This document shows positions 6,599-29,600 of a stretch of DNA of 45,374 nt, one piece after another; within the stretch, counting starts at the first letter, position 1, and the number at the start of each line of letters is the position of its first letter. The notes under the pieces were generated by a model. It was not told the origin of the DNA and did not search any database. It saw only the letters and a list, made by a program, of their open reading frames with translations. A program made the translations under genes and the position numbers. Source of the DNA: a virus (taxonomy: Duplodnaviria > Caudoviricetes); IMG/VR virus record IMGVR_UViG_3300025112_000030, positions 1 to 45,374 of that record. The stretch is one strand, 5' to 3'.

Positions 6599-8074
6599 TT
6601 AAGCTATCTTCCAGCTTATATCCTGATCTTCCCTGTAAGTATAATTAATTTTTCTTTCTTTTGCAATAGTTTTGTGATTAGGAGTATAACATTTCTTCAT
6701 AGCATAGAACAACCCGTCTAAAAGGTCATCATGCTTACCCCTAGGATAAAGTAAAAGCTCATCAACCATCTCTGGCAGATCATTTTGGATGAACATCTTC
6801 TTCTGTGCAAAATAAGGCTGCATAGTCTCAAGCCTTGATGATTTACTTGTTCTTGGACTCTCTTTTATCTCTAAGCCCGATATGAAGATCTTTTCTTCAT
6901 CGCATCGCTGACGAAGGTATTCCCTAAGCATCTCCTGATAGCCTACACTCTCTACCCTGACCTTTACAGGCTTAAATAGTTTGAAATATTCTATAATGTT
7001 TTCAGCAAGCTGCATGGGAGTTGCCCTTTGGCGGTAATACTGGAGAATATACCTGTTATTGTTTTCGTCTACTGCAACAGGCATGATTACAGAGTAATCT
7101 GCCGTCTTGCGTACCGAAGAAGCAGGGTCAACCCCCATGAAGACATTGACAGGGAACTCTTTATCCCCATCTGTTAAATAATGCTTATCGTTATTGTCAA
7201 ACTTGAGCTTATAGTCATGATGCTGAATATATTCCTGTTTAAACAACTGGTCCTCATCACCAGTGATCCAGCACATATATTCCCTATAAAAGACTGAAGT
7301 TCTGCCTATGGAATCCAGTTCTTCCTTCTTTTCCTTTAGTTTCGATATTGGCTGCCATTCCTCCCATAGAGCTTTGTTGCCATCCAGATCAGGGCTGAAA
7401 TGCATATTCTTCCACCCCTTCATATCCTTTAATACCTCTACCATGCATCTCTGGTGCTGTGGAGTGCCAATGACACATATCTTACCCTTCTGAGGATCCA
7501 AAGATGGTACAGCACTCTGCAGTAGCCATCTAAGATTCTGCTCCATAGCCTCGGCTGTCTTGGTGTTGTTCTCATCTTCAGGGTCATCAACTATAATCAG
7601 AGTGGGACGCTGTGAACCAACCTTAATGCCACGCAACTGCTGTCCCGTACCCTTGCAGATAATCATAGAACCGTCTTTAAGCTCTATCTCGCTCTTAGCC
7701 CATTGCCTTGCACTGTGCTGCCCCCAGTACCCGTAGATCTGCCGGAAGGAATCACTGTACTCTATGGTGTCCTTGATTGTGCCAAGGAGCTTTATGGCAT
7801 GATCTTGGGTACGGGAGACTAACACAATAAGCTTTGCCCCACTATGGTTCATGATATGATAAAGGGGATATACACCTCCAACAATAGAGGATTTAGCATG
7901 ACCACGTGGGGCAATGATATTTGCCTGCTTGATATCGTCATCCATCAGGACATCGGCTATCTGGTAATGAAACTCTGGGGAAGAGGCTGAAAACATGTTA
8001 GGCATAATCACCTTGCCGAACATGATCATATTATCTTTCAGCTTTCGCCTGATATATGACTTATCTTCTTCCAT
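6599..8074 (-). CDS. terL: Terminase large subunit
   Basis: Walker A APRGHAKS, Walker B IIVDDPE, IGTP coupling motif, nuclease GVDPA and HDDLLD. Confidence 0.93.
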   Translation of the reverse strand: MEEDKSYIRRKLKDNMIMFGKVIMPNMFSASSPEFHYQIADVLMDDDIKQANIIAPRGHAKSSIVGGVYPLYHIMNHSGAKLIVLVSRTQDHAIKLLGTIKDTIEYSDSFRQIYGYWGQHSARQWAKSEIELKDGSMIICKGTGQQLRGIKVGSQRPTLIIVDDPEDENNTKTAEAMEQNLRWLLQSAVPSLDPQKGKICVIGTPQHQRCMVEVLKDMKGWKNMHFSPDLDGNKALWEEWQPISKLKEKKEELDSIGRTSVFYREYMCWITGDEDQLFKQEYIQHHDYKLKFDNNDKHYLTDGDKEFPVNVFMGVDPASSVRKTADYSVIMPVAVDENNNRYILQYYRQRATPMQLAENIIEYFKLFKPVKVRVESVGYQEMLREYLRQRCDEEKIFISGLEIKESPRTSKSSRLETMQPYFAQKKMFIQNDLPEMVDELLLYPRGKHDDLLDGLFYAMKKCYTPNHKTIAKERKINYTYREDQDISWKIA

Positions 8075-8289
8075 TAATCACATTCATCGCTATACTGTTC
8101 ATAATAATAACCCAGATCCTCCATCTCACGGAGTGTATCTATGGCTAACTTTGCCATATACTCGGGATTGCCGTTATGCATGACTGCCAATACATGAAAT
8201 GCACTTACAGCTATCTGTAACTGCTGATCCCTGAGATTATCTTCCGTAATACCGTTATATTGTTTCTCAACTTCACTCAGGGGCTTCAT
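8074..8289 (-). CDS. Hypothetical protein
   Basis: 71-aa ORF overlapping both neighbours in the packaging operon. Confidence 0.55.
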   Translation of the reverse strand: MKPLSEVEKQYNGITEDNLRDQQLQIAVSAFHVLAVMHNGNPEYMAKLAIDTLREMEDLGYYYEQYSDECD

Positions 8290-9046
8290 GTTCTTCGCTC
8301 TTACGCTGCAGGGTAAGACGTTTATCTTCTTTTGCTATAGTATCGGCTATCTGTTTAGTCATATCCACCTGTATCGTGTCCGTTATCATCTTCTTACTAG
8401 GCTTCATCTCCAGTAAGTCCATTAAATAGTCGTTTGCCTTTAGAAAATTGTTTACATCACCCTTACTTTCTGCCATATGAAGGGCACGGAGTACATTATC
8501 AACTGCAAGCTCCTTATTTACACCCTTATCCTTTAGCAATTCCTTTAGTTTTTTCTCTATCATACGCTTTGCTACCTTTTGTTTTAGAAATCTGCGTACC
8601 GTTGCTGCCGGGATCTGTTGATCCGGTCTATATATTTTCCCAAGAGTATCAAAGTCCACCTTTCCAGAACTAAGCAGCATATGTGCGTAAGATGCAACAG
8701 TATTCTTAGCCCTAGTAGTGCCAGATTCATCATCATCCCATCTCCTCTTAGGGTTGGTCTTGCTATATACTCCATATTTGTGATTTCTCTCAAATAATAT
8801 TTTGGAGAATCTGCTGACCCAGCCCACTCCGCAGGTTAGCTTTACAAATGTCTTAGTATTGCCATGCTTATCTGTATAATCCCTGCGGTCATAGCATTTG
8901 GATACATAATCGTCATCTGTGTATGCCCAATCGCCATCATACGCCTCTTTCCAATATATTATAACAAGCCCTCGCTTGGCTGCCTCAGCTTTTGTAAATA
9001 TGTCGTATTTACTCGTTTTTCCGTTAATTCTGCGTTTTATTTTCAT
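8273..9046 (-). CDS. Putative terminase small subunit
   Basis: Upstream of terL; basic, helical C-terminal half; position-based call. Confidence 0.45.
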   Translation of the reverse strand: MKIKRRINGKTSKYDIFTKAEAAKRGLVIIYWKEAYDGDWAYTDDDYVSKCYDRRDYTDKHGNTKTFVKLTCGVGWVSRFSKILFERNHKYGVYSKTNPKRRWDDDESGTTRAKNTVASYAHMLLSSGKVDFDTLGKIYRPDQQIPAATVRRFLKQKVAKRMIEKKLKELLKDKGVNKELAVDNVLRALHMAESKGDVNNFLKANDYLMDLLEMKPSKKMITDTIQVDMTKQIADTIAKEDKRLTLQRKSEEHEAPE

Positions 9047-9131
9047 AAAAGATTTAAGTGTAGCTACTCTAAAGTAGCAGAGCTATTTATATATAGCTAC
9101 TCTATTATTATATAATAATAATAGTACTACT

Positions 9132-9341
9132 TTAATCCATACTCTTTTTTGGAGGCGGCTCTACACCTAGATTTTGAGCTACTATACGGCTGATTATATT
9201 ATATTCAGCATCAAGCTCCTCTGTGTTGGCATCTAGCTTACTTACAAACTCCTTGTACTGCTTCTCTGTCATTGTACGCTTCTCCCAAGCACCAGTCTCT
9301 AGATTAAACACCTCGTATTTCCGCTTCGCTTTAGTCTTCAT
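9132..9341 (-). CDS. Hypothetical protein, first gene of the leftward unit
   Basis: 69-aa ORF just downstream of a sigma70-like promoter. Confidence 0.55.
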   Translation of the reverse strand: MKTKAKRKYEVFNLETGAWEKRTMTEKQYKEFVSKLDANTEELDAEYNIISRIVAQNLGVEPPPKKSMD

Positions 9342-9351
9342 GTTACACTTT

Positions 9352-9380
9352 AAGTTAAGTACTCTATAATACTGCTACAA
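9352..9380 (-). promoter_or_regulatory. Sigma70-like leftward promoter
   Basis: TTGTAG-17 nt-TAACTT on the minus strand, 10 nt before the ATG at 9341. Confidence 0.4.
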
Positions 9381-9485
9381 GCCAGAATAGTTCCAGTACT
9401 CTTTTAAAAAGTACAACAAGAATGCGTGTGAGAGGAACGTAGAGTACCTACCCCCCGTTAATTCGGGTTGGGTTGGCTTAACTAC

Positions 9486-9555
9486 GTTGAGTTCAGTTAA
9501 TTGAGTTGAATTGAATTAACTCAATGTGTTCACTCGCTACTCTCACTCACTCAGA
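9486..9555. repeat. Degenerate short repeats (GTTGA/GTTCA/TTGAA, then CACT) in the divergence region
   Basis: gttga gttca gttaa ttgag ttgaa ttgaa; inverted repeat ttgagtt/aactcaa at 9501-9524. Confidence 0.5.
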
Positions 9556-9628
9556 GCACATATATCCACGCATGTGCGATCCTTTATCTAATCCTTACAC
9601 ATCACATCTGTTACATGCTACTATGTAT

Positions 9629-9654
9629 CTCCTCTATCTCTGGCAATTAAGCCA
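9629..9654 (+). promoter_or_regulatory. Repeated early motif, copy 1 (candidate phage promoter plus hairpin)
   Basis: CTCCTCTATCTC-TGGC-AATTAA-GCCA. Confidence 0.6.
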
Positions 9655-9672
9655 CATATAAAGGAGTACATC

Positions 9673-10011
9673 ATGAAACTACTAAGAGATATTTCTATCG
9701 CTATATTCACATCTATCACATCATTTCTTACACCAGATCCTGAGCCTTGGTACAGGACATGGACATGGAAGAGATGTTCTACTTGTAACAGAACACTTGA
9801 TGGTCAGAGATTTCCAGACAGTCAACAGATACTTGGAACACCAGATGATCCACTATGCGAAACCAACGGTAATTGTAAGGTTGGACTCTTAAGCCCAGCC
9901 AGTTACAATCATACAAACCTTGTAACTCAAGTCGATCTTCACGAAAAAGATTGTTGTATGAGAGATCGTCCATGGTATGATTCGCATATCTGTGATAGCC
10001 TACCATTCTAA
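9673..10011 (+). CDS. Early hypothetical protein, Cys-rich
   Basis: AAGGAG SD; CSTC and further Cys/His; followed by a terminator. Confidence 0.65.
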   Translation: MKLLRDISIAIFTSITSFLTPDPEPWYRTWTWKRCSTCNRTLDGQRFPDSQQILGTPDDPLCETNGNCKVGLLSPASYNHTNLVTQVDLHEKDCCMRDRPWYDSHICDSLPF

Positions 10012-10015
10012 GATC

Positions 10016-10045
10016 AGCCCTGCTTGTCAGGGCTTTTCTTTTCTT
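10016..10045 (+). terminator. Intrinsic terminator
   Basis: AGCCCTG-CTTGT-CAGGGCT followed by TTTCTTTTCTT. Confidence 0.75.
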
Positions 10046-10069
10046 CTACACCACCGAGTAGCAACAATG

Positions 10070-10107
10070 ATCTTTCTCCTCTATTTGTGCTGGGTTAAAT
10101 CCCCCAG
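10070..10107 (+). promoter_or_regulatory. Repeated early motif, copy 2
   Basis: ATCTTTCTCCTCTATTT (17 nt identical to 10273-10289), then a CTGGG/CCCAG hairpin. Confidence 0.6.
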
Positions 10108-10110
10108 TTT

Positions 10111-10270
10111 TGAAGAAAGTAAACTTCGGTTATATAGGCTATCTGATTTCTAGATTTGGATAGACGCTGATGGTAGGTAGCTCCTACCACTTTCTTCATT
10201 ATTTTAGGCTAATCTACAGTCGCTCACATTCTTTTCAAGATTGATTATAAGCCGACTGTAGTAGAGCCTA
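10111..10270 (+). ncRNA. Candidate structured RNA: multibranch domain plus long hairpin
   Basis: TGAAGAAAGT/ACTTTCTTCA closing stem with three inner hairpins including C(UUCG)G; TAGGCT/AGCCTA plus CTACAGTCG/CGACTGTAG. Confidence 0.5.
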
Positions 10271-10272
10271 CC

Positions 10273-10304
10273 ATCTTTCTCCTCTATTTTTGGCAACTAT
10301 GCCA
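10273..10304 (+). promoter_or_regulatory. Repeated early motif, copy 3
   Basis: ATCTTTCTCCTCTATTTT-TGGCA-ACTA-TGCCA. Confidence 0.65.
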
Positions 10305-10329
10305 TTAACAATTAAACATAGGAGTAATT

Positions 10330-10554
10330 ATGTTTAAGTCACTTAAATCATTCCTCATTAACCTTGGCTGGTTCACCGTAGGTGTAACTGCCATAGCTGT
10401 TGAAGAATCTTATAAAGCAGGTAAAATCGTTGCTGATGCCGTCAAAGACGGAGATCCGCAGAAGTATGCCCGCTATCAGATCACCCGTTTAAAGTGCAGA
10501 GAACCTCTGCATAACCATCATGACGGCTGTCCAGCTTGCGATATGCCTGTCTAA
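10330..10554 (+). CDS. Early hypothetical protein with a hydrophobic N-terminus and a C-terminal Cys/His cluster
   Basis: AGGAG SD; CREPLHNHHDGCPAC. Confidence 0.7.
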   Translation: MFKSLKSFLINLGWFTVGVTAIAVEESYKAGKIVADAVKDGDPQKYARYQITRLKCREPLHNHHDGCPACDMPV

Positions 10555-10627
10555 ACCCGTAGCCTTGCCACCTATTTAGAGTCTGAATCAGACGTAGGTG
10601 CTTGGCTACACATACATGGAGTAAAAC

Positions 10628-11092
10628 ATGTACACTCAAATAACATTAAAAAATGGCTTAACAATAGCCAACTTTTCCTCACCTCATCCATTTACATTCA
10701 CAACAGGCGAAATACTGCCAGCTTGTGAACCAGAATGGTCAAAAAAGATGTCTTTAAACGTTTATGAAGAATCTACTGAACGCAGAAAAACCAATGATTA
10801 CAATCATGGTATGATAGAAACTGTCGGTCTTTGGAGCGACACTAAAATATCAGTAGGGATACCTGACGTAGTTCGTAAGAATTTACTTCTTGTACAAACT
10901 AAATTAGACATCGACATTGTCCTTGTTTCATTTATGCTTCTTAAAGCCCTGAAAGACTGTGATGTCTATTGGGGAAAGAAAGATCTAAGTAATGGAAGAT
11001 ATCACGATCACGATAATATTTGGAAATGCCGAACCATTCGCTGTGCAGATCGAATCACTAAAGAGATCTATCCAGATAGATTCTGTATTTAA
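10628..11092 (+). CDS. Early hypothetical protein
   Basis: GGAG SD; 154 aa. Confidence 0.7.
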   Translation: MYTQITLKNGLTIANFSSPHPFTFTTGEILPACEPEWSKKMSLNVYEESTERRKTNDYNHGMIETVGLWSDTKISVGIPDVVRKNLLLVQTKLDIDIVLVSFMLLKALKDCDVYWGKKDLSNGRYHDHDNIWKCRTIRCADRITKEIYPDRFCI

Positions 11093-11117
11093 TTAGCCCT
11101 TCTCTTTATTTCAGTAT

Positions 11118-11257
11118 TAGATTATCAAACACTTGTGAGTAAGCAGATGCTGAATCGAGTGAACTCTGAAGTTGACGAACTTCTTAATGCTCAAGGTAGG
11201 ATGAAATAGCAAGGTAATCTATAATCATTGGAGAGTCATACATTTGTGTGGCTCTCC
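11118..11257 (+). ncRNA. Candidate structured RNA (multiway junction) followed by a terminator-like hairpin
   Basis: TAGATTATC/GGTAATCTA stem; inner TGAGTA/TGCTCA with three hairpins; GGAGAGTCATAC/GTGTGGCTCTCC then TTTATGTTT. Confidence 0.45.
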
Positions 11258-11296
11258 TTTATGTTTAGTAATTTAATAACAACAAAGGAGTCACTC

Positions 11297-11416
11297 ATGA
11301 CCAAAGCACAAAAAAGGCTCAAACGAGCAAAAAACAAAAAAAAGAACTTAAATGTTCAACGTTCTCATCAACAATTTAAAGAAAGTCCTAAAAGACCAAA
11401 AGAAAGGAGTCAATAA
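11297..11416 (+). CDS. 39-aa Lys/Arg-rich peptide
   Basis: AAGGAG SD before the ATG at 11297; the longer track ORF from 11228 lacks an SD and runs through a hairpin. Confidence 0.6.
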   Translation: MTKAQKRLKRAKNKKKNLNVQRSHQQFKESPKRPKERSQ

Positions 11417-11754
11417 TGGACAGCAACATGGGTTTTAGCGAAAACTTAGCAGGTGATATACACTTGATAATGGCTTATTATGACCAGTTTAGACATCTTT
11501 GTAATAACAAAGAACAAGAACATGGTGATATGTTAGAAAAAATCTCCCACCTAAAATGGGAGATTGAAGATCTCGAAACAACGATAAGTGGCATGAATGA
11601 ACATTACGAAGAACTAAAAGTAAGAAAAGATCTATTCAGGGAAAAAGCAATTGACCTCGAAAAACAAATCGAGTCTATCAATGCTCGCTGGTATAATAGA
11701 CTATATGTCTTTGTCACTTCAATACGTTTTCGATCTCCAATTACTGCTAAGTAA
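11416..11754 (+). CDS. Coiled-coil hypothetical protein
   Basis: AAGGAG SD; heptad-like pattern. Confidence 0.7.
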   Translation: MDSNMGFSENLAGDIHLIMAYYDQFRHLCNNKEQEHGDMLEKISHLKWEIEDLETTISGMNEHYEELKVRKDLFREKAIDLEKQIESINARWYNRLYVFVTSIRFRSPITAK

Positions 11755-11763
11755 TATAACTGC

Positions 11764-11791
11764 CTCCTCTATTTCTGGGCATTATGCTCAG
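11764..11791 (+). promoter_or_regulatory. Repeated early motif, copy 4
   Basis: CTCCTCTATTT-CTGGGCA-TTA-TGCTCAG. Confidence 0.6.
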
Positions 11792-11796
11792 TTATA

Positions 11797-12158
11797 GGGG
11801 ATGGCTTTAAACAAGCCAATTTCCAACAAGCCCCGCAAGACTTGGTGAACGCACCGTATAGGGTAGAGACTGTATTTAACGATGCAGTCCTGCCCTACTT
11901 GAAATTGGGCAGTATGTCAGTATTAAAAAACAAGAGTAATCTTGTTTATCTCTTCTTACGAGATGGAGAAAAATACCTTTTCTACTTGGACGCTCTGGAT
12001 AGAGCGGTAAAATACACACAGATGTGCAAATGCATAATGTGCCTTGGACATGAAATGAATAGTAAACTAAAAAACACTTAGTCTCGTTTTTATCATGCTA
12101 TTATGTGGGTTGGCTAATTGCATCCGCCTTCATTTGTGAATCCCACCATACTGCTCAA
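11797..12158 (+). ncRNA. Candidate large structured ncRNA
   Basis: 12-bp long-range stem 11905-11916/12147-12158 enclosing about 8 hairpins; long hairpin at 11859-11897. Confidence 0.55.
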
Positions 12159-12171
12159 ACTTAAGAACTAC

Positions 12172-12196
12172 TTCCTCTATTTTTGGCAACTCTGCC
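12172..12196 (+). promoter_or_regulatory. Repeated early motif, copy 5
   Basis: TTCCTCTATTTT-TGGCA-ACTC-TGCCA, almost identical to copy 3. Confidence 0.65.
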
Positions 12197-12222
12197 ACTC
12201 AATCAAACAATAGGAGTTACAC

Positions 12223-12594
12223 ATGAGTAACACACTAAAAAAGATCATAGCCAAGATGCATCAAATTGCTGAAAAAGCACCTGAATTTGATCAAAACGAT
12301 CTTTGGCTTTCCAGATCAAAGGAAACTGCCAACGGCTGGGATAATCAAGCCACATCTATAGAAGTATTGTTAGATGATCCATCAGACGAATACTTTTATA
12401 ACGTCTGGTGTAACTGCACAGATGACGGCATAAAAGCCCTTGATAGTTTTGTTGAAACAGAACTTATACCAAACGGCTTGAGACTGCTTGCAGGTAAAGA
12501 TCACGGAAATGGAAAGGTAGATCCTGATACCAGAACCTTCTCAAGAGATGGTCAATCCGTTAGATATATGATTGCTAATCCGTCAGCATCATAA
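12223..12594 (+). CDS. Early hypothetical protein
   Basis: AGGAG SD; 123 aa. Confidence 0.75.
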   Translation: MSNTLKKIIAKMHQIAEKAPEFDQNDLWLSRSKETANGWDNQATSIEVLLDDPSDEYFYNVWCNCTDDGIKALDSFVETELIPNGLRLLAGKDHGNGKVDPDTRTFSRDGQSVRYMIANPSAS

Positions 12595-12655
12595 TACCAC
12601 CACTCAATCGAGCGATGAGCAGATGATAGTGTTCACAACAGATTAAGTGATAACT

Positions 12656-12688
12656 AAGCCACGTGGGACATCCTGCGTGGCTTTTTTT
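12656..12688 (+). terminator. Strong intrinsic terminator ending the early block
   Basis: AAGCCACGTGGG-ACAT-CCTGCGTGGCTT with a 7-T run. Confidence 0.8.
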
Positions 12689-12790
12689 AATTAAAAGGTG
12701 TTCGCAGGGCGAACCCAGTACGCTTAAAGCCACCAACTGCATTTACTGCAGAATTAACGTGGGGCATGAGCAACAAGCTGCAAATACCAA

Positions 12791-12819
12791 TTGACTAAAG
12801 TGCAAACAATCACTAATTT
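12791..12819 (+). promoter_or_regulatory. Sigma70-like rightward (middle?) promoter
   Basis: TTGACT-17 nt-TAATTT. Confidence 0.35.
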
Positions 12820-12958
12820 GTGCCTACAATTTATAGGGAATTATTAACAAGATAAACCATTCTTAACCTTTAATATTACTATATTTACAGCACACCAAGA
12901 AATAAAAACACTACGAGCATTATGTTCTAGTAAACACATTAAATGAGTGGCAAAAAAC

Positions 12959-12998
12959 GGGGGGCAGTTCAAGGCTAAGGACTGCCTCCTTTATTTTT
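12959..12998 (+). terminator. Terminator-like hairpin before the middle genes
   Basis: GGGGGCAGTTC/GGACTGCCTCC followed by TTTATTTTT. Confidence 0.45.
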
Positions 12999-13027
12999 GC
13001 TAACCCTCAAATAAATAGGAGTCACTA

Positions 13028-13297
13028 ATGAAGTGTAAGCACCATCCTGATGTAGTACTGGAAGTAGTAACTACAGAAGTAAAAGAAAAAGTTCCTTGGC
13101 TGGATGAACCAGTTATAACATATAGAGAAGCAGAATATTGCCCTAAATGCTGGGGTAAGCATGAAGAAGGTGAATCAATGAGACATGATCTCACTGATGA
13201 CTTCTTATGTGAAATACAACCTGAAGAACTTGATTACTGGGAATTACAAATAGATAATTACATCGAATCACAAGTCGATGAAAGGAGAGCCAAATGA
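13028..13297 (+). CDS. Hypothetical Zn-finger-like protein
   Basis: AGGAG SD; CKHH...CPKC. Confidence 0.7.
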   Translation: MKCKHHPDVVLEVVTTEVKEKVPWLDEPVITYREAEYCPKCWGKHEEGESMRHDLTDDFLCEIQPEELDYWELQIDNYIESQVDERRAK

Positions 13298-13566
13298 ATA
13301 CATTCAAAACATTAGATGAAGTAATGGGACCAGTGCTTACAGATATTAAACGCACTAGGGAAAAAGATAGACTAGAAAATCTTGAACTAGCAGTAAGCGG
13401 TGTAGAATCATGCATTAATGACATGAATGAGACATCTCAGGAGCTTGATGAATTGTGGTCAAAACTATCTACAGTTGAAATCATATTGGAACGAACTCAA
13501 AAAAGGTTCATCAACAGAATAGCAACACTTAAAAGATACATTGAAGATGTAAAGGATCTATTATGA
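13294..13566 (+). CDS. Coiled-coil hypothetical protein
   Basis: SD; ATGA coupling. Confidence 0.7.
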   Translation: MNTFKTLDEVMGPVLTDIKRTREKDRLENLELAVSGVESCINDMNETSQELDELWSKLSTVEIILERTQKRFINRIATLKRYIEDVKDLL

Positions 13567-13757
13567 TTACAGAACAAGATGTTATTAACGATAACCTAGC
13601 CATTTACTTAGAACCAGTCTTTAAAGAAGAATGGAAACGTGTAGTAAATGAGATAGCACATGAGCATGAAGTAAATCTAAAGACAGTTGAACAACTATTC
13701 TTTGCTCATCTAGCAGTTCATTTATCATTAAATAAATTCTTAGGAGATAAAGAATGA
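13563..13757 (+). CDS. Hypothetical protein
   Basis: ATGA coupling. Confidence 0.65.
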   Translation: MITEQDVINDNLAIYLEPVFKEEWKRVVNEIAHEHEVNLKTVEQLFFAHLAVHLSLNKFLGDKE

Positions 13758-14020
13758 GTACAGCACGAATATACACAGGAATAGCTAAAGTGGTAGGATT
13801 AACTGGTTATGCTATTAATCAAACCCTTAGAGCTGCAACTGCTGTATCAAGAACTGTAGCAGATCGTGTCAACAATGTCAGACGCTATAGAATAGAACTG
13901 CTTGTTGACGGAGCTACGTTAAAAACAAAAGATGACCAATCAACCAGAGATATTGTAAGAACCATAGAAAATATGGATGATTACGGTATAACTGGTGTCA
14001 TCATACATGAACAGGATTAA
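13754..14020 (+). CDS. Hypothetical protein
   Basis: AGGAG SD; ATGA coupling. Confidence 0.7.
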   Translation: MSTARIYTGIAKVVGLTGYAINQTLRAATAVSRTVADRVNNVRRYRIELLVDGATLKTKDDQSTRDIVRTIENMDDYGITGVIIHEQD

Positions 14021-14022
14021 CT

Positions 14023-14157
14023 ATGATAATATTCGAAGTAATGGGATTTATAGTTAATCTATTCATGTTTGGTGCAGGACTGTTCCTGATCATGTGTTCA
14101 ATTATGGGTTTCATATTCATATATGACACTATCGAAAGGAAAAGAAATCGTGTCTAA
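14023..14157 (+). CDS. 44-aa membrane peptide, not in the ORF track
   Basis: MIIFEVMGFIVNLFMFGAGLFLIMCSIMGFIFIYDTIERKRNRV; AGGA SD; fills the gap between genes. Confidence 0.55.
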   Translation: MIIFEVMGFIVNLFMFGAGLFLIMCSIMGFIFIYDTIERKRNRV

Positions 14158-14353
14158 ATCAGCAAGAGCACCAGATAGGCGACCTGCCATAGCCTTTGAT
14201 GAAAAAAGTGAAGTACAGGCTATATTAGACGCTTTAAACGCCTATCGCTATGAACATATAGATAGGAATAACAACAAACTCGATGAGTATTACAGAAAAC
14301 TGATAGATGTAATTGAAGACTGTATAAAACTCTTCGACAAAGAGAAAGGATAA
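14123..14353 (+). CDS. Hypothetical protein (start possibly GTG at 14150)
   Basis: Track ORF within a packed operon. Confidence 0.6.
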   Translation: MTLSKGKEIVSKSARAPDRRPAIAFDEKSEVQAILDALNAYRYEHIDRNNNKLDEYYRKLIDVIEDCIKLFDKEKG

Positions 14354-14355
14354 AC

Positions 14356-14991
14356 ATGGAACTTATATTTGCAAAACTAGATGAAATAAAAGAGAGTAAG
14401 TACAATCCTCCTGTAAGAACAAAATCAGTTAGCAGACTGATGAAGAATATAGCAGAGAATGGACTTCTCACTCCCATACTGGTTGATAACAAGTATATCA
14501 TAATTGACGGACACAGACGTAAAAAAGCTGCAGAACTTCTGGATATGAGCGAAATACCAGTTATTGTACATGATGGAACTTCTTCACGTAAATATTCTAA
14601 GCTATTTGTAGCTACAAGCCAAGACACTATGATGATTGGCGGTAGCCAATGGCTATGGATGTATACACAGGGAAGAGATATTCCTGAAAAGCATCTGTTT
14701 AGAATAAAGAAACTGGAAGAATACCTTGGACCTGAGTTTTCCAGAGGAATGTTTATGCAGTTGATTAAAAAGAATAGATCTGCATCAACATATCAGAATG
14801 TTATGGGTATGTATCGTAAGTACACAAACAAAAGAACTAAAGCTCACATGAAAGCGTTAGCATACTATCTCTTAAATGTTGATAGCTGCTTTAAGCTTAA
14901 AAATGCTTTAGTAACATTCATACCAATTAATCTACTTACTAAGTGTATAGAGCAAAAGAAGAAGATTAATGTAGTGTGGGAAACGGAATGA
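14356..14991 (+). CDS. ParB/Srx-like N-terminal domain protein
   Basis: YNP-R...LMKNIAENGLLTPILV...IIDGHRR...IPV. Confidence 0.85.
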   Translation: MELIFAKLDEIKESKYNPPVRTKSVSRLMKNIAENGLLTPILVDNKYIIIDGHRRKKAAELLDMSEIPVIVHDGTSSRKYSKLFVATSQDTMMIGGSQWLWMYTQGRDIPEKHLFRIKKLEEYLGPEFSRGMFMQLIKKNRSASTYQNVMGMYRKYTNKRTKAHMKALAYYLLNVDSCFKLKNALVTFIPINLLTKCIEQKKKINVVWETE

Positions 14992-14994
14992 TAG

Positions 14995-15309
14995 ATGTCG
15001 TATTACAATACTACAAAAGAAGAGAAAGATCTTAAAAAATATCATTCTAAAGCTGATACACAGGATCAGATGATATTAAAATACTTTCATGAGCATGTCA
15101 TAGCCTCACCATCAGAAGTATGGGTATGGTTCAGCAGTAACAATGTTGGAAATGTACCCATTACTTCTATAAGGAGAAGTATAACAGATCTAACTAATGA
15201 AGGTAAGCTTTTCAAAACCAGAAAGAAACGTAGAGGTTATTACGGCAGAGATGAATACATCTGGACAATACCAAGCTATAACTTTACAAAGGAGAATAAA
15301 AATGCCTGA
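14995..15309 (+). CDS. Putative winged-HTH DNA-binding protein
   Basis: PITSIRRSITDLTNEGKL...KRRGYYGRDEYIW. Confidence 0.6.
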   Translation: MSYYNTTKEEKDLKKYHSKADTQDQMILKYFHEHVIASPSEVWVWFSSNNVGNVPITSIRRSITDLTNEGKLFKTRKKRRGYYGRDEYIWTIPSYNFTKENKNA

Positions 15310-16315
15310 TTATGTTGATACTATGATGTATGTAGGAGAAATGCCTTGGCACAAACAAGGTGTCATGGTAAAAGATGCTCCCACCATCAAAGATGCTATA
15401 GAACTAGCAGGTCTTAACTGGGAAGTTAAGAAAGCACCTACTTATTTTAAACAAAATATAGGTAGGAACTTTCTTAGATTTTCAGGTGTTGAGAAAGAAA
15501 CTGGTCACTATGTAACATACAGAACTGACAGAAACGAGCCTCTTGGGAATGTTTCAGGACGCTACGAGATCCTGCAGAACAGAGATGCTTTTGAACCATT
15601 TGAACCTATGCTTGACATGGGATTCAGTATTGAAACTGCTGGAGCAGTTCAAAAAGGTAGAAAGATCTGGGTTCTTGCTAAAGCACCGGATCAGTACACC
15701 GTAGGTGATGATAAGATAAATCGTTACGTATTTATGTTCACATCACATGACGGCAGCACTGGCAATTGCTTTAGAGATACAATGATCCGTATTGTGTGTT
15801 ATAATACACTTGATTATGCTCTAAGTAAAAAAGGCACTTTCGAGTACAGCTTAAAACATACAAGCAGCATTAAGCAGCGTGTAATGAATCTGAAAGAAAC
15901 TATAGCTGAAAGTGAAGGTAACTTTGCTAAAGCAATAGAAAGTATGAACAGGTTTCAGGATATAGAACTTAATGATCATACATTAAATCTTTATCTGGAA
16001 ACAGTTATACCATTCTTGAAGAACAGAAACAAAGAGAGTATTCCAGAAAAAGGAATATTCGTTAGAAATACTGCAAAGCCAGTATATGATAGATTGGTAC
16101 ATCTGTATCGTAAGGGACAGGGCAATAAAGGCAAAACTCTATGGGATGCCTACAATGCCGTGACTGAATACTATACACATGACAAACAGTACAAAGACTG
16201 GGTGCAAGCTACACAATTTGGCAAGCCTTATGACTACAAAGTCACAGCTTACAAAGTAGCTGAACAGTTTTCTAACAGTTATCATACTGAAGCTGGACCT
16301 GTCTACTATTCATAA
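15302..16315 (+). CDS. DUF932-family phage/plasmid protein (TIGR03299-like)
   Basis: MMYVGEMPWH, YEILQN, ETAG, TSHDGS, RIVCYNTL, TLWDAYNAVTEY; AAGGAG SD supports a start at 15302 rather than 15197. Confidence 0.85.
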   Translation: MPDYVDTMMYVGEMPWHKQGVMVKDAPTIKDAIELAGLNWEVKKAPTYFKQNIGRNFLRFSGVEKETGHYVTYRTDRNEPLGNVSGRYEILQNRDAFEPFEPMLDMGFSIETAGAVQKGRKIWVLAKAPDQYTVGDDKINRYVFMFTSHDGSTGNCFRDTMIRIVCYNTLDYALSKKGTFEYSLKHTSSIKQRVMNLKETIAESEGNFAKAIESMNRFQDIELNDHTLNLYLETVIPFLKNRNKESIPEKGIFVRNTAKPVYDRLVHLYRKGQGNKGKTLWDAYNAVTEYYTHDKQYKDWVQATQFGKPYDYKVTAYKVAEQFSNSYHTEAGPVYYS

Positions 16316-16319
16316 CCTC

Positions 16320-16826
16320 AAAGGAAGCGGTACAGCACACACTTCATCTCTTATGGACTCCGCAAGCCTATCAGAGATCGTACTGCTTCCTTTATTTATG
16401 CAGGTGGAGTTAGAACTTAGAGGATATCCGCAAAAGCCGTGACAATGACAGCAAGGGCTACGGCACACCTGCAAAATATGGGGAGTGGTGACGAGTACTC
16501 ATACGCTGGAGAGAGAATCTGCAACCAGCAGCACTCCCCGAAAACTTATAAGAGACACTGGGACGGATTAGGCAAGAGTGATAGTCGAGACTCATCGTAA
16601 ACATGGATATTGAATTTGTCACCATGAACGTCCCAGAAGATTTTAGCTGTGGTATCATATGATATTACATAGGAAACCAGCTCGTCAACTAATGGCATGT
16701 CTTGTTAACGACTACAGGAACCAGTACGATGGTATTGCAATACCACAGCATAACTTAAGAAACCAACAAAGGTGGGGACACTAGGATGAACGCTAGTGCA
16801 CAGCTCAGTACTCCGACCTTCCCACC
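16320..16826 (+). ncRNA. Tandem array of six candidate structured RNA units (not canonical tRNAs)
   Basis: Six consecutive domains of 56-104 nt, each closed by an 8-14 bp stem and separated by A/T-rich linkers. Confidence 0.55.
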
Positions 16827-23591: not shown

Positions 23592-23622
23592 AAAAAGGGG
23601 GGCTAGTCCTCCCTTTTTTTTT
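23592..23622. terminator. Bidirectional terminator between the convergent blocks
   Basis: A5-GGGGGG-CTAGT-CCTCCC-T9. Confidence 0.75.
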
Positions 23623-26600
23623 AAGCCTCTCCAAGGATCTCTTCAATACCGGATATTTGTGTACGTCTTTTTTTAGCTTTATTTATTCTGCTGATCATTT
23701 GATGATACGGAAACCTGAATAAGATCTCAGGTGCTCTCTCTACACCGTGGAACGGTCTTGGATCAGCTAACTGCTTTAATTGCCTGACACCACGCCCAAA
23801 AGGGAACAAGGTATACATAGTATAGCCTGTAAAGTCCTTATACTGCCCAGTTAATAGCTCTCCAAACGCTTCAGGGATCCTAGCTATAGGCGGTTTCAAT
23901 ACATTAAGAGGACCAAGCTTAGATCCAAAGAATGCCATATCCTTTTCACGTTTATCTCCAAATGTCCAGTCTGCCATTGCCTGCACCCAGTCCCAAGGTG
24001 GTGGCAGCGTTGTATCAAATATGCTGAACATAAAGGCTGCACCTAGTGCATACATAAACATATCTATAGTAAAGGTGTCTTTAAACCTTTCATAGGACTC
24101 TGTTCCCGGTTTAAAGCCCTGTAGCTTGGCTTGCCTGTAGAACTCCTTACGGATTCTAACACTATTGAAAGCAAACAGCTTGAATCTGCCCATTACTTTA
24201 CCCATAGCTGTACGCATGAAAGGAGGTCTGAAAGCATTCTGATACAAGAATTGTGTCATCTCAATGCCTTTTTCTGCTTGTTGAAATACATAAGGATCAG
24301 CAAGCGACATGTTTCTGCCTGCAGCTCCAAAGCCTTCAACTGCCTGCATAGCATGTGCGGTAAAAGCATTTAAGCGGTTGACTCGTTCAGATTGTTTCAT
24401 AAGAAAACCACCATATTTTAGCATAAGATCTTTAACGCCATATCTTTTAGCAACATCTCTTACGCTTTCATCCCTGTTGCCTTTCTTAGACTTCATAGCT
24501 TTCAAAAGATCCCGCTGGAAATCTTTGATGTTTACACCAGCATTCTTTAGTCTGCTGGTCATAGCACTATTATATTCAAACTCGTTTTGTATAAAGTTAT
24601 CTATTACACCACGCTCTTCTAAGTATGTCATAAGATCTTTACGATTCCTTACTTCCTTACCACTTAAAAGTTTAAGTACAGAATTGCCATCCTTATCACT
24701 AAGCAATGTTCTATAGACACGATCATTGCTAAAACTATTCATATAGTTACGTACACCAGCACTCCCTATAGCCATAGTAGCACCACCAAATATATTAGTA
24801 GTCCATGTGCCAGTATTGGCAAGAAGTGTTAGTAGCTCATATTGAGCTTCACCCCTGCCCAGATCATGCAGTACCCTTGTAAAGTACTCCTTTCTGGCTT
24901 GCGGATCTTTAGGTATGGCTTTGTTATTAAAAAAAGGTATAGCTTCTTTTTTACCAAGCTTACTCTGATATAGTTTCTCCATCCCTTTAACCATTACATC
25001 ATCAGACAGGTTGTAATACATATTCTTCTTGTTAAGGTGGAGCAACTCTCTGCCTTGTTCGGTCATCATCTTCTCAGAGAAATGAGACTGATAGCCTAAA
25101 GAATCTTCTGCATATAGCCGAACATAGTCAGCCCATACATCTACATAATTTTTATATCTTAGTTTATCTGAGATTTCTATATCAGATACACCTTTATATA
25201 GATCTTTAAATCTTTTTTCTTCAGACTTACTTGGTTGGTAATCCCTCATGTTCTTAAGCATTATATCTATTTCATTTTGTGCCTTAAACTTCATCAGGTT
25301 TCTAAAATAACCTGATATAAGAGCATTCTGATAATCATTGATCAGATCATAACTTCGTTTAAATGGTATTGGATCTTTACCACGTGGCTGTAGCGGTGCT
25401 GGTCTTACCCCAGTTCCTGCTACATCACCTTCCATGCCAGTAGAATCTATATTGATTCTATCTGCAGGATCTACAAAAGGATTCTCCTGCTGAATCTGTC
25501 TAGCTATTTCTGTTTGTAGAGATGGATCCTTACGGGCTATCCATTCAGCCTGTTGAAGTTTTATACCTTCTGGTACATTCCTAAGACTATGGTGAACATA
25601 CTCATCAAATTTTCTTTTGAATGTTGCCTTAAAAGGTTTTTCCTTTCTCTGGAGTTCACGAAACTCTTTTCTGTTCTTAGGATTACTATCATAGAGTCTT
25701 TTCTCAAGCAAGTATTCATATCTATATCTGCGTACACCATCTATACCTACCATACCAATGATCTTATCAGATTGCTCGACAGCATCAATAACTTTCTTCT
25801 GGAATAACTCAAAGTCAAATCTGCCATTCTTATCATAGCGTATATATTCGTTTACTCTACCATATGTATGCTCATTATCTATAGTATCCCAATCAAAATC
25901 CTGCTTATTAATACCTTTAGTTGACACCCACTTGTTCCACATCTTCTCATTGAAGTTAGTCAATTCGCTATTTAACTTATCGAATGTTGCTCTATTGATC
26001 TCTTTAGGCAAATCGTCAATAGGCAGCCTCCCTTCACGTACTTCTATTAAGCTATCCATATATAGATCACGTTCATTAGGACTCTTAAGTGAACCAATGA
26101 TTTTATCAAGCTCTGCTCTTTCGTCTGGCTTAAAGTTGGTATACTTATCTAAACCAGCCTGACTCTTTTTAAAATAGTGCCCTATAATGCCTATAGGAGA
26201 CATGATCTGGCTTACTTCTCTAACAACTGGACCTTTACTGGTCATAACAGTCATCTTGATCTTATTACTGCTTCCTATGATATTTTTAGCTACCATCTTT
26301 TCATCGGTAGTCATAGGATGCTCATAGAATTGCATAAGTTTTAATTCCATATTGGAATTGTCTCTCATACTCTTCCAGTAATTGTTTACCATTCTGAAGT
26401 CACTCATATCCATTGTAGTAGCATCACGTGGTGATCCCATCCTTGATGTAAAATCCATGAACCAGTTATTAAAATCTTTACCAAGTATAGGATGGTCATC
26501 TATTAAAGATTGAAATTTCTCTATCTCTTTAACATCAACATCATAAATTGCCAAGCCCTTGATCTCTTTAGACTTGATTATTTCGTTCAGCTCATGATGA

Positions 26601-29600
26601 ACCTTAGCATTATTATTCAATGGTGTCTTCTTCATATCAGACATTTTAATATCTACACTAGGTTTTTTTGTCCCGCTAACACGATTATATATAGTATCCA
26701 TTCTCTGGTAGAAAGACCTCTTGGCTCTCATTGGAACCATACGGGATGCATGTATAGGCTTAAAGTACTGTGGAGAATCTTTAGAAGTCTTTAATGGTCT
26801 AATAGGACTTAACAGCCAATAACTAAAATAATCCTGTAACAAGCCGTCTGTAAGCCCTGCAGAGCGTTCAAGTGCTGCGAGCTTAGACATGGTATCATAT
26901 ATCTTGCCGTCTAGATCTACATTCATAGCATTATCACGTGCTTTATCACCATGTATTTCTCTGGCAAACTCTTTTATCTCAAAAGCAGCCTCTTTTATTT
27001 TAGGATAAACATCTTCAACAACATTTACGGTTCTGCCTTGCTTGGCAAATTCATTTTGTATCTTAATGAATTGATCTGTTAGTAATTCCATTGTGGCATA
27101 CTGCCCAAGCTCTTTACCTATGAACTCAAGAGCCTGCTCTGGATTGGAAACCATTAAGTCTCTCATTCTTTGTGATGTAGCAAAAGATAACTCACTTGCT
27201 ATAATATTATAATGTTCACTTAAGTATTTAGCAACTATATTATTCCTTTGTTCAAGCTTTCCGCTTGCATTCCTATAAAATCCTTCTATACCTAAAATAG
27301 TATCATACATAAGATTTTGTACTTCTACTAAATTTTCAAACATAAAACTCTCTCTAGTGAAACCTAGATTTTCAAGTTTCTGGTTGAGCTTTGGATATAT
27401 AGTATTGATTCCTGCTTTGTATCCCATCTTATTATTGGAAGCTTTGATTGAATCTAATACTTCAAATAATTTCTTCTGCCTATCGTACTCATAGTTATAT
27501 TGTCTAGGCTTTATATTATCTATAGCCTCTTTTATACCGCCTATTTCTGTATTTCTCATTAACCTAATGAAGTCACTATAATTATCTATAGACTTTCCCT
27601 TTTCAGTAACATCAAATAAAGATCTATATAATAAATCTCTGAACTGGTTGTAAGGTCTTACATTAGGATCCTTACTGGCATCTGCTGACTTATTAACAAT
27701 CATAGTGCCCAGATCAAGGAAGAACCTATGTGCTTTCTCTTTGCCCATAGGAGCATTCTCCTTTAAACGTATATTAAGACTTCCTTTAACAGTCTTACCC
27801 TTTCTCGTTTTGTAAGAATATGGTATTTTTATATTACCGCCATTTGCGTTGATATAATCATACATGTTCTGCATAGCTATCTTAGCTGATAGCCCGTAAC
27901 CCAGCCCCTGTTTACCAGTACTGGCGTTCTTAGCTACCTGAAACCTGTGGGATGGTGAGAACATCATAAACTTCTCATCCATGAAGTCTTTTCTAGTTAC
28001 TTCACTCATGTCAGCTTGAAACAAGTCTTCAAGCATAGACTCATATTCCTTGTTCCAATGTTTACGCTCATTCCTGTTGACTTCATAAAAGTCAATCAAC
28101 TCTTTATTCATACCCTGAAATATCTTGATACTGTCTGAATCTTTATCTGCTCCACCAAGATAGGTATTGTCTTTGTGGTGCGTAAATGATCCCGCACCTT
28201 TCTGATTTGTCCAACCCTTGAAACGTAGTTTACGTATTCCAGATATCGAATCAGCAGGAGTACGTATAGTAAGAAGGCTGAAAGCCTGATCAAACTCCTT
28301 CTTAGCCTTTTCGGAAAGTCCTGCGGAGTGTTCCCTAAGATATAAGTCCCAAACCTTGCCAAGGGTGTTTGACTCACCCCTAAATACCACAGGCATTTGT
28401 TTAAAACCATTGTCAAGATAAATTTCTCCTTCTTCCAGCAATCTGTTTTTCTTAGCAGGATCTATTTCAACATAGCTCATCATGTCTGGAGTAAAACCCT
28501 TCAGCCATGATTTACCTCCTGTATGTATATATGGATTGCTTATTCGCTTAGTAAAATATTTACGTAAAGCGTTAAAATAATTATTCTTATTAAAACTCAT
28601 AGTATGCTTGGCTACATAAGTGCCACGCAATGCTTCTGTGAGATTGCGATTATCATCATGAAACTTCCTGAATGCTGAGTCAGTATCAGGTTCAAACGAT
28701 TCATGGCTAGGCTGATCTAGCTCACCAGCCAGATCAAGCTTCATAATACGGTCTGATATAAGTTTACCCATCTCACTATCGGGTCTATTAATCAGTATCT
28801 CACTCATAAATTCATAAGGCATTTCATCAAGATCCATCTTCTCATCAACAAATTTCTTACGGAATGCCTCTACATCATCTGTATTTCTAAACTCATTAAC
28901 AAGCTCTACAGCCCTCTTTGATCCTTTGAGTGACGGCTCAAGGATATCCCTGATATAGACATCCGCATACCCTTCTGCTTGGACTTCGTTTGACTGTCCA
29001 TATAATTGAATTGGCATACTTGTTCCATATACATCTTTTCCTGTGTTCTCATATGTTCCAGAACTAATCTGTAATTTTTCAATTGGAATCTCTATTGGTT
29101 GTAAATTATCTGATTCATATTTGCCCTCTTTATACTTAAGAGTGCTCTTTGGATTGTTGCCAGCAAGCTTGGCAGCACTACCATAGACAACAGCATGTAT
29201 GTTATTGGCTTTCATCCAGTCGTTTAAGGCTGGGAAAGCCTCTTGCCCATTAGACTTAGTACCTAAGAAGCCTTGTTCTGTTCTAACGGCAATTACGGGC
29301 TTAAAATGCCCTGTGTTATTAGAGTTGCGTCCCATTGCTATTGTGCTTGCATCAATAAAGTCGCTTCTAAATTCCATAAGACCATCAGAATCACTGATTT
29401 CTACTTTGATATCTTCATACTCTTTAGTCTCAGGGTTATAAAGCTTTACTGTTTTTGGATCATCTATAATAACTATACGAAATGTTTCACCATTATTAGT
29501 GCCTTCAATACCCTCAAAACTTTCCTTAACCATAGGTGTCATACGATTAGCCATAAGCTGTACTCTTTTATTAAGGTCAGCTACACTACTGCCAAAGTTC

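Follow-up and report, generated by a model that had tools for sequence, protein, structure and literature searches.

An uncatalogued, probably tRNA-like noncoding RNA of about 250 nt in a tailed phage genome

The locus and the discrete RNA

The window, meaning the whole 45,374-nt stretch that was analyzed, is the genome of a tailed phage. Genes for the terminase, portal, capsid, tail fiber, and endolysin lie on the minus strand, and the plus strand carries ParB-like, DUF932, Erf, primase-helicase, and resolvase genes. The nearest cultured terminases are approximately 26% identical to that of the window. Because an endolysin gene is present, the host is probably a bacterium; the stretch occurs in runs from marine, seawater, vent, or unspecified metagenomes. 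The structural module also includes a 2,688-aa open reading frame (ORF) (23621-31687, minus strand) with no match in PHROGs or Pfam. A repeated motif that is conserved across the clade precedes early genes at positions 9624, 10071, 10274, 11759, 12167, and 12981. In some copies, base pairing is possible between its pyrimidine core and the ribosome-binding site downstream, with a small hairpin enclosed, and the motif may be a promoter, a processing site, or a translational switch. The RNA domain described here is placed in the early plus-strand region, between motif copies 4 and 5. The features of the locus are as follows, with related loci denoted by L numbers:

11759 to 11800, plus strand: motif copy 4 (repeated early-region motif, hairpin), in the upstream flank and outside the RNA
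11801 to 11904, plus strand: small hairpins and a long hairpin (11859-11897), a separate upstream element that is identical in L207
11842 to 12081, plus strand: a 79-codon, TTG-started ORF, judged not to be the selected element
11905 to 12158, plus strand: the noncoding RNA domain from closing stem to closing stem, delimited by RNA contigs, the homologues in L054, L057, and L305, and its replacement in L207
12167 to 12594, plus strand: motif copy 5 and a 123-aa gene of unknown function (gene 12223-12594), the marker of the slot in relatives

The 254-nt domain is present as a discrete piece in ocean RNA libraries. Twenty runs matched the stretch, six of them RNA runs (three studies) and 14 of them DNA runs. 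The word share of region 11700-12250 ranged from 0.26 to 0.39 in the RNA runs and from 0.63 to 1.00 in the DNA runs, one of which may be the source of the window; the domain by itself would give 0.43. Four of the six RNA runs, representing three studies with two runs sharing one, were mapped onto 8000-16500. Each of the four yielded a single contig, at least 99% identical, which lay within the closing stem and had no loose end (11926-12156, 11915-12146, 11926-12146, and 11929-12098; all within 11915-12156). Elsewhere in these 8.5 kb there was a single 37-nt partial match with five differences and a loose end and no full-length contig, although missing RNA cover outside the domain is not proof of silence. 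The chance of four random pieces all landing in the domain is 1.6e-4, a figure that overstates the case since two runs share a study. The RNA runs were found using this stretch, and their contigs carry no strand, exact ends, or level. A second noncoding stretch of approximately 430 nt (12590-13020), with a terminator-like hairpin at 12656-12683 and windows at a z of about -4, had no RNA contig in the four mapped RNA runs.

The boundaries are set by L207, which is approximately 99% identical to the window in both flanks, 11775-11911 included, and has unrelated AT-rich fill between the stem arms, which are themselves decayed. Because L207 swaps the domain but keeps the flanks, the 254-nt domain was regarded as a dispensable unit and the upstream 130 nt as separate. 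The first-pass annotation had joined both into one unit of about 380 nt (11775..12158); the actual unit is about 250 nt (11905-12158), and 11775-11904 lies outside the RNA. This upstream segment folds at z = -4.9 and does contain the long hairpin that had been annotated at 11859-11897 (-23.8 kcal/mol). It had no counterpart before the homologues, and no RNA contig covered it. A group I intron reading of the upstream hairpin was rejected for want of a P4 and of Rfam support. The mature RNA would extend from approximately 11909 to 12157. We infer the plus strand because G-U wobble changes and tRNA geometry fit it, and seven one-sided pair changes are G-U wobbles of this kind.

The 384-nt region folded at z = -5.3 on the plus strand and -3.2 on the minus strand, and the domain alone at -4.0 and -4.5, respectively. 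Folding energy says little for the domain, because 11 of 60 sliding 254-nt windows in 9000-16500 were also at z ≤ -4. Stems of at least 12 bp with no more than one G-U and spanning 200 to 300 nt occur twice on the plus strand of the window. Unusually strong folds (z of -4.2 to -5.7) were also noticed in early-region coding stretches at 10375-10750, 12250-12500, and 13750-14130.

A single frame stays open through the middle of the two alleles, which could mean that the 79-aa ORF at 11842 is what selection acts on, the outcome that the first-pass annotation had named as fatal to its RNA proposal. We consider this extremely improbable. The ORF has no protein homologue and occurs, among viral contigs, only in a near-identical contig; it has stops in L207, its start region is missing in relatives, and there was no significant tblastn match in L054, L057, or L305. 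Moreover, the substitutions follow base pairing.

Homologues, covariation, and distribution

Searches with blastn and nhmmer over 80 of the 90 terminase-anchored loci found returned identical copies only. A first covariance model, built from the window sequence alone and giving rough E-values, matched over its full length in L054 (24.7 bits, E = 5e-6) and L057 (20.2 bits, E = 2e-4). Both copies directly precede the motif and the 123-aa gene homologue, the same slot as in the window. Scanning all viral contigs for a loop-based pattern gave six matches: L054, L057, the near-identical contig, L305, and two chance matches. L305 is a new member that differs from L057 by one base, and here too the 123-aa gene homologue comes after the RNA. 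The two chance matches, L303 and L304, lie inside coding sequence and had no model match. With a second model, neither 86 sources nor two sets of whole records (48 and 41) yielded additional members; eight of the 48 are unrelated pattern matches, and most records are fragments. The one weak match in whole records, L310 (19.3 bits, E = 0.016), extends over a coding gene's end and was taken as chance. The alleles are approximately 51% identical (global score z of 3.5; 0 of 500 shuffles), and blastn over 47 whole records missed even the true homologue. Against GenBank phages, blastn gave no match, and the single 28-nt match of a plasmid search was attributed to chance. Exact-pattern scans found identical copies or chance only (2, 3, and 66 viral, 4 genome, and at least 120 metagenome loci among the matches listed from 23 of 64 parts). 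Capture from a host chromosome was not supported in GTDB as probed with one exact 18-mer.

Covariation was assessed on helices taken from L057 and a sequence-only MAFFT alignment. In this alignment, 94% of 199 cells were paired, and 19 of 69 pairs had changed on both sides, whereas shuffling gave 6.2 (0 of 500) and sliding the helices gave no more than 5. The closing stem, D-like stem, P5, and T-like stem were fully paired (100%) and the variable-like stem was 96% paired. P3 and P4 were 81% paired, and in the sequence-only alignment both are broken in the allele of the window; helix 10 faces a gap in the window sequence. In an unselected test with the relative-only structure, 22 of 31 double changes in L057 kept the pair, compared with 13.8 expected (P = 0.003). 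The values for L054 were not significant (17 of 28 double changes paired, P = 0.055; 13 of 22 with another aligner, P = 0.093). The homologue search that had been proposed as a check thus has homologues and two-sided changes to show; the evidence, from only two independent lineages, is good but short of R-scape grade.

Among the anchored loci that cover the slot, the RNA is carried by 3 of 26 and absent from 23, with many near-duplicates in the set. At least two changes are required to place the carriers on the terminase tree, where they are interleaved with phages holding other fills, a distribution that is consistent with cassette exchange or repeated loss. The RNA is an accessory in a swappable slot. 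Its absence from most relatives, its replacement in the near-identical L207, and an early region rich in stable folds would all fit a functionless element, either a stable product left over when the early transcript is processed or a captured sequence in decay. However, the compensatory changes in five internal or terminal helices at 49% divergence imply selection on the whole fold, judging from the aligned alleles, and we give the functionless reading very little credence. Motif copy 4 is retained in L033, L005, and L207, which are without the RNA or stop short of the slot. In L033 and L032, a tRNA-Tyr(GTA) was noticed immediately before this motif copy (7333-7412 and 217-296, respectively, minus strand), and in L005 only an apparent 3' remnant of it is left near 70-45.

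Rfam gave no match at the gathering score on the window and 10 related loci and nothing over the domain at E ≤ 10; nothing came near the gathering score on the early region, L078, or L305. No Rfam covariance model for GOLLD, ROOL, OLE, raiA, CsrB, 6S, RNase P, SRP, C4, or introns matched, in agreement with the earlier failure to place the element with tmRNA, RNase P, SRP, 6S, or an intron. There are four GGA in the 254 nt, the sole loop GGA being lost in relatives, which is not the pattern of CsrB or RsmZ. No reverse transcriptase, as would accompany a retron or DRT, was present among the ORFs scanned with PHROGs and Pfam. A description of such an RNA was not found in the literature covered, which included few subscription papers. 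With RNA contigs that match it, compensatory changes in syntenic homologues, a 79-aa ORF that is lost in relatives, and no Rfam match, the "novel phage ncRNA" of the first-pass annotation is borne out for the 254-nt domain, which is very probably a real, selected, and uncatalogued phage noncoding RNA of about 250 nt.

Probable tRNA-like architecture of the domain

All hairpin strings that had been annotated were located at their positions, with the closing arms at 11905 and 12147. Their value differed once homologues were compared. Homologues retain the closing stem and GTGGG/CCCAC and also CACA/TGTG, there as the outer helix within a longer hairpin. They do not retain ATCTC/GAGAT, AGAAAA/TTTTCT, or CATGA/TCATG, and at these sites the homologues have other pairings in common. 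The GTAA-loop hairpin is present in the window and sits in a 23-nt insertion confined to its allele. What the first-pass annotation missed is the tRNA-like architecture of the domain, the parts of which are listed below (tRNA numbering):

11906 to 11916, plus strand: 5' arm, with a 7-nt acceptor-like strand (11910-11916), G-1 (11909), extra pairs (11906-11908), and U8 following at 11917; 11 of 11 pairs kept in three of three aligned sequences, five changed on both sides
11920 to 11976, plus strand: D-arm-like 4-bp stem (11920-11923 with 11973-11976); four of four pairs kept, one compensatory
11928 to 11947 and 11949 to 11969, plus strand: the allele-specific GUAA-loop hairpin and hairpin P2, respectively, within the D-like arm and enclosed by its 4-bp stem
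11977 to 12057, plus strand: anticodon-stem-like helix (11977-11982 with 12052-12057, one U-U), firm in relatives and weak in the allele of the window
11991 to 12006 and 12017 to 12041, plus strand: hairpins P4 and P5 (AAAU loop) in the approximately 70 nt that take the place of the anticodon loop; P5 with nine of nine pairs kept, four compensatory
12058 to 12102, plus strand: long variable-arm-like helix with a conserved loop heptamer (12077-12083); seven of eight pairs kept in the window allele, two compensatory, one pair with three types
12105 to 12146, plus strand: T-arm-like 5-bp stem with G53 U54 U55, 26 nt (12112-12137) replacing C56, and G57 A58 A59 U60 C61; five of five pairs kept, three compensatory
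12147 to 12158, plus strand: 3' arm from the tRNA-geometry analysis, with the acceptor-like strand (12147-12153), C73 (12154), and UCA (12155-12157; CCA in L054, L057, and L305)

The helices in common follow each other in the order of a tRNA: acceptor, a 3-nt linker from U8, a 4-bp D stem, a 5- to 6-bp anticodon stem, a 6- to 8-bp variable stem, 2 nt, and a 5-bp T stem. The T-like stem is followed by 7 nt, C73, and then CCA in the relatives or UCA in the window, and G-1 stands opposite C73. As in tRNAs, a 7-bp acceptor and a 5-bp T stem are combined with N73 and an NCA end. The positions that are invariant in tRNAs are established, and ten such bases are kept against a background identity of 51%. 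The T-loop reads G53 U54 U55, insert, G57 A58 R59 U60 C61 in four of four sequences, and the tRNA geometry is likewise found in all four. The geometry pattern, which was composed after the sequences were seen, occurs at eight places in 1.7 Mb, five being the RNA itself and three others, and in none of 20,000 shuffles of the window allele.

Compared with class II tRNAs and tRNA-His (G-1:C73, 8-bp acceptor), the RNA is alike in the order and lengths of its stems (7+1, 4, 5, 6 to 8, and 5 bp), in its short linkers, and in U8, G53, U54, U55, R57, A58, Y60, C61, C73, and (C/U)CA. It differs in its length of 242 to 249 nt, in a D-loop of 26 to 49 nt, in an insert of 26 nt (window) or 32 nt (relatives) in place of C56 of the usual 7-nt T-loop, and in a domain of approximately 70 to 80 nt in place of a 7-nt anticodon loop with U33. 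Because it has no 7-nt anticodon loop, the RNA cannot decode mRNA. All four loops of the predicted cloverleaf are enlarged, and the RNA was not detected by ARAGORN or the Rfam tRNA model. Constrained to the cloverleaf, the RNA folds at an energy 4.8 kcal/mol higher than its minimum-energy structure, and the central junction of the cloverleaf is weak in the window allele. The inner helix P3 is firm in relatives and weak in the allele of the window, and the pairing probability of the D-like stem is a modest 0.35 to 0.66 in relatives. On balance, we consider the tRNA-like frame likely.

A further difference from tRNAs lies at the ends, where the leader pairs with the whole CCA. In the window, U74 keeps a G-U pair with the leader while spoiling CCA, which suggests selection for an 11-bp closed stem over a free CCA. 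The T-loop insert removes C56 and probably the tRNA elbow that RNase P contacts, as the accessible text of PMC11143913 describes it.

The covered CCA would also fit a plain closing stem of 11 to 12 bp on a self-assembling RNA of the GOLLD or ROOL kind, the tRNA likeness then being due to ancestry or coincidence. GOLLD and ROOL are phage-borne and often found near tRNA islands, and their function is unknown, according to the accessible part of 10.1101/2024.12.08.627333. A palindromic UGCA in the T-loop insert of both alleles and another structured element of about 500 nt in the same slot of relatives point the same way. Like GOLLD, ROOL, OLE, and raiA, the phage RNA is a structured noncoding RNA of unknown function; however, it has no sequence or model match to them, is much shorter, and has a tRNA-like frame. 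Loop-loop complements exist but are not in homologous register, one being broken in L054, and no conserved pseudoknot was found among them. The word "ornate" of the first-pass annotation, if taken in the sense of GOLLD, ROOL, and OLE, is therefore not supported. As the ten tRNA-invariant bases kept at this divergence also speak against this reading, we regard a self-assembling RNA as improbable.

Possible roles and other contents of the slot

To our knowledge, the known bacterial tRNA mimics are few, namely, tmRNA, Y RNA, and some antisense precursors. By analogy, the phage RNA would work most like other tRNA mimics (tmRNA, YrlA, and allo-tRNAs), yet it lacks what would place it in any of these classes. 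With tmRNA (RF00023, RF04321) it shares tRNA-like ends and a large domain replacing the anticodon loop. The alanine identity of tmRNA consists of G3-U70 and A73; the phage RNA has G3-C70 or A3-U70 and C73, so that these elements are missing. In addition, a D-like stem and a long variable-like arm are present, the T-loop is interrupted, and there is no PK1 and no conserved resume motif or tag. The idea of a reduced tmRNA-like RNA that rescues ribosomes by a reading frame inside the anticodon-like arm draws on weak Rfam matches of L305 at a resume-like motif (tmRNA_permuted, 15.9 bits, E = 0.38; tmRNA, 5.1 bits, E = 6.7) and on a frame of about 30 codons that is open from this motif in relatives, the aligned frame being open in the window allele. 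However, these scores are far under the gathering score of 47 and none was obtained on the window, ARAGORN made no call, and the motif exists only in L057 and L305, L054 having an altered version and the window allele a deletion there. Such a role is very unlikely.

According to the accessible part of PMC4201824, YrlA is likewise a noncoding tRNA mimic, known from bacteria and phages; some YrlA RNAs are RNase P substrates, the gene neighbors Ro60, and the T arm is intact. In contrast, the phage RNA has neither an Rfam match nor a Ro60 (no Ro60 or TROVE match among 49 ORFs scanned with Pfam), and its acceptor is formed by its own ends. The allo-tRNAs and irregular tRNAs in the accessible part of PMC5389517 are unusual cloverleaves, too, some of them phage-borne, some with G-1 or an extra loop, and some probably outside translation. 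Those are 8/4 or 9/3 types of near-normal size with anticodons, whereas the phage RNA is 7/5 with four enlarged loops.

We tentatively favor, at a confidence somewhat short of even, a non-decoding tRNA mimic that acts as a decoy for host tRNA-recognizing proteins early in infection. The RNA would be transcribed together with the early genes and excised by tRNA-processing enzymes of the host, with RNase P acting at G-1 or +1 and the 3' end being trimmed. Stacked acceptor and T stems would stabilize it, and it could then be a decoy or competitor for a tRNA-targeting defense or an acceptor-stem-reading enzyme. Release by tRNA-processing enzymes is suggested because RNase P reads the acceptor and T stems and yields 8 bp in tRNA-His, as stated in the accessible text of PMC11143913, where T-loop changes reduce RNase P efficiency and shift the cut. 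The accessible text of PMC5389517 expects G-1 species to be HisRS substrates. The relative with a true tRNA-Tyr next to the slot was counted in favor of the mimic.

The C4 antisense RNA of P1 and P7 and the CI RNA of P4 are about one third as long as the phage RNA. As is proposed for the phage RNA, they come out of an early transcript, with RNase P as the probable nuclease; a difference is that the phage RNA has no Rfam match and no target sites were found for it. Their example raises the alternative that the tRNA-like frame is a scaffold for processing and stability only, and that the enlarged conserved loops are antisense or protein-binding regulators of early genes, like C4 RNA or Y RNA tethering. 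Conservation is no lower in loops and linkers than in stems (56 of 102 unpaired compared with 62 of 130 paired positions identical). A title cited in PMC11143913 presents the C4 precursor as a substrate of RNase P, and in the accessible part of PMC4201824, RNase P cleaves M. smegmatis YrlA, which also acquires CCA. On the other hand, a 12-nt loop stretch has no partner in the window except its own opposite strand, only isolated 8- to 9-nt matches and no shared target were found, and the Ro60 partner of Y RNA is missing from the ORFs scanned. We consider a mere scaffold unlikely, if worth keeping in view.

Phage tRNAs defeat tRNA-targeting immunity, and a non-decoding mimic would, if true, be an RNA-only version of this. 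It is possible, though doubtful, that the favored mimic represents a wider class of phage "giant tRNA" in which the D, anticodon, variable, and T loops are all expanded. Its members would be matured by the host with a His-type G-1:C73 acceptor, would soak up tRNA-cutting or acceptor-reading enzymes as RNA-only counter-defense, and would count among several unrelated noncoding RNA cassettes that replace one another at a single hot-spot slot in an abundant clade of marine phages. Since a 250-nt cloverleaf with an interrupted T-loop evades tRNA finders and Rfam, more may be hidden in phage genomes.

The slot itself may be a source of further uncatalogued noncoding RNAs. A different multihairpin element of approximately 450 to 500 nt occupies it in L078 (5245-5770, minus strand), L037 (6275-6770, minus strand), and L038. 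Its carriers come from two branches of the terminase tree, 5 of 144 pairs are compensatory between two copies, and it had no Rfam match; it is a strong candidate for a second new large noncoding RNA. A third structured noncoding fill of approximately 120 to 170 nt, with a long terminal hairpin and no Rfam match, was seen in L052 (4225-4370, minus strand) and L070 (4560-4750, minus strand), the middle of the hairpin being expanded in the L070 copy. In L021, L027, L028, and L029, one or two tandem related elements of approximately 70 to 80 nt, whose ends match and whose middles differ, lie upstream of the 123-aa gene homologue. Finally, L207 (2836-2891, plus strand) and L033 (7190-7245) have in common a 56-nt G-run/C-run element of 91% identity. 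It stands in opposite orientations relative to the early genes in the two loci and is possibly an orientation-independent, DNA-level element.
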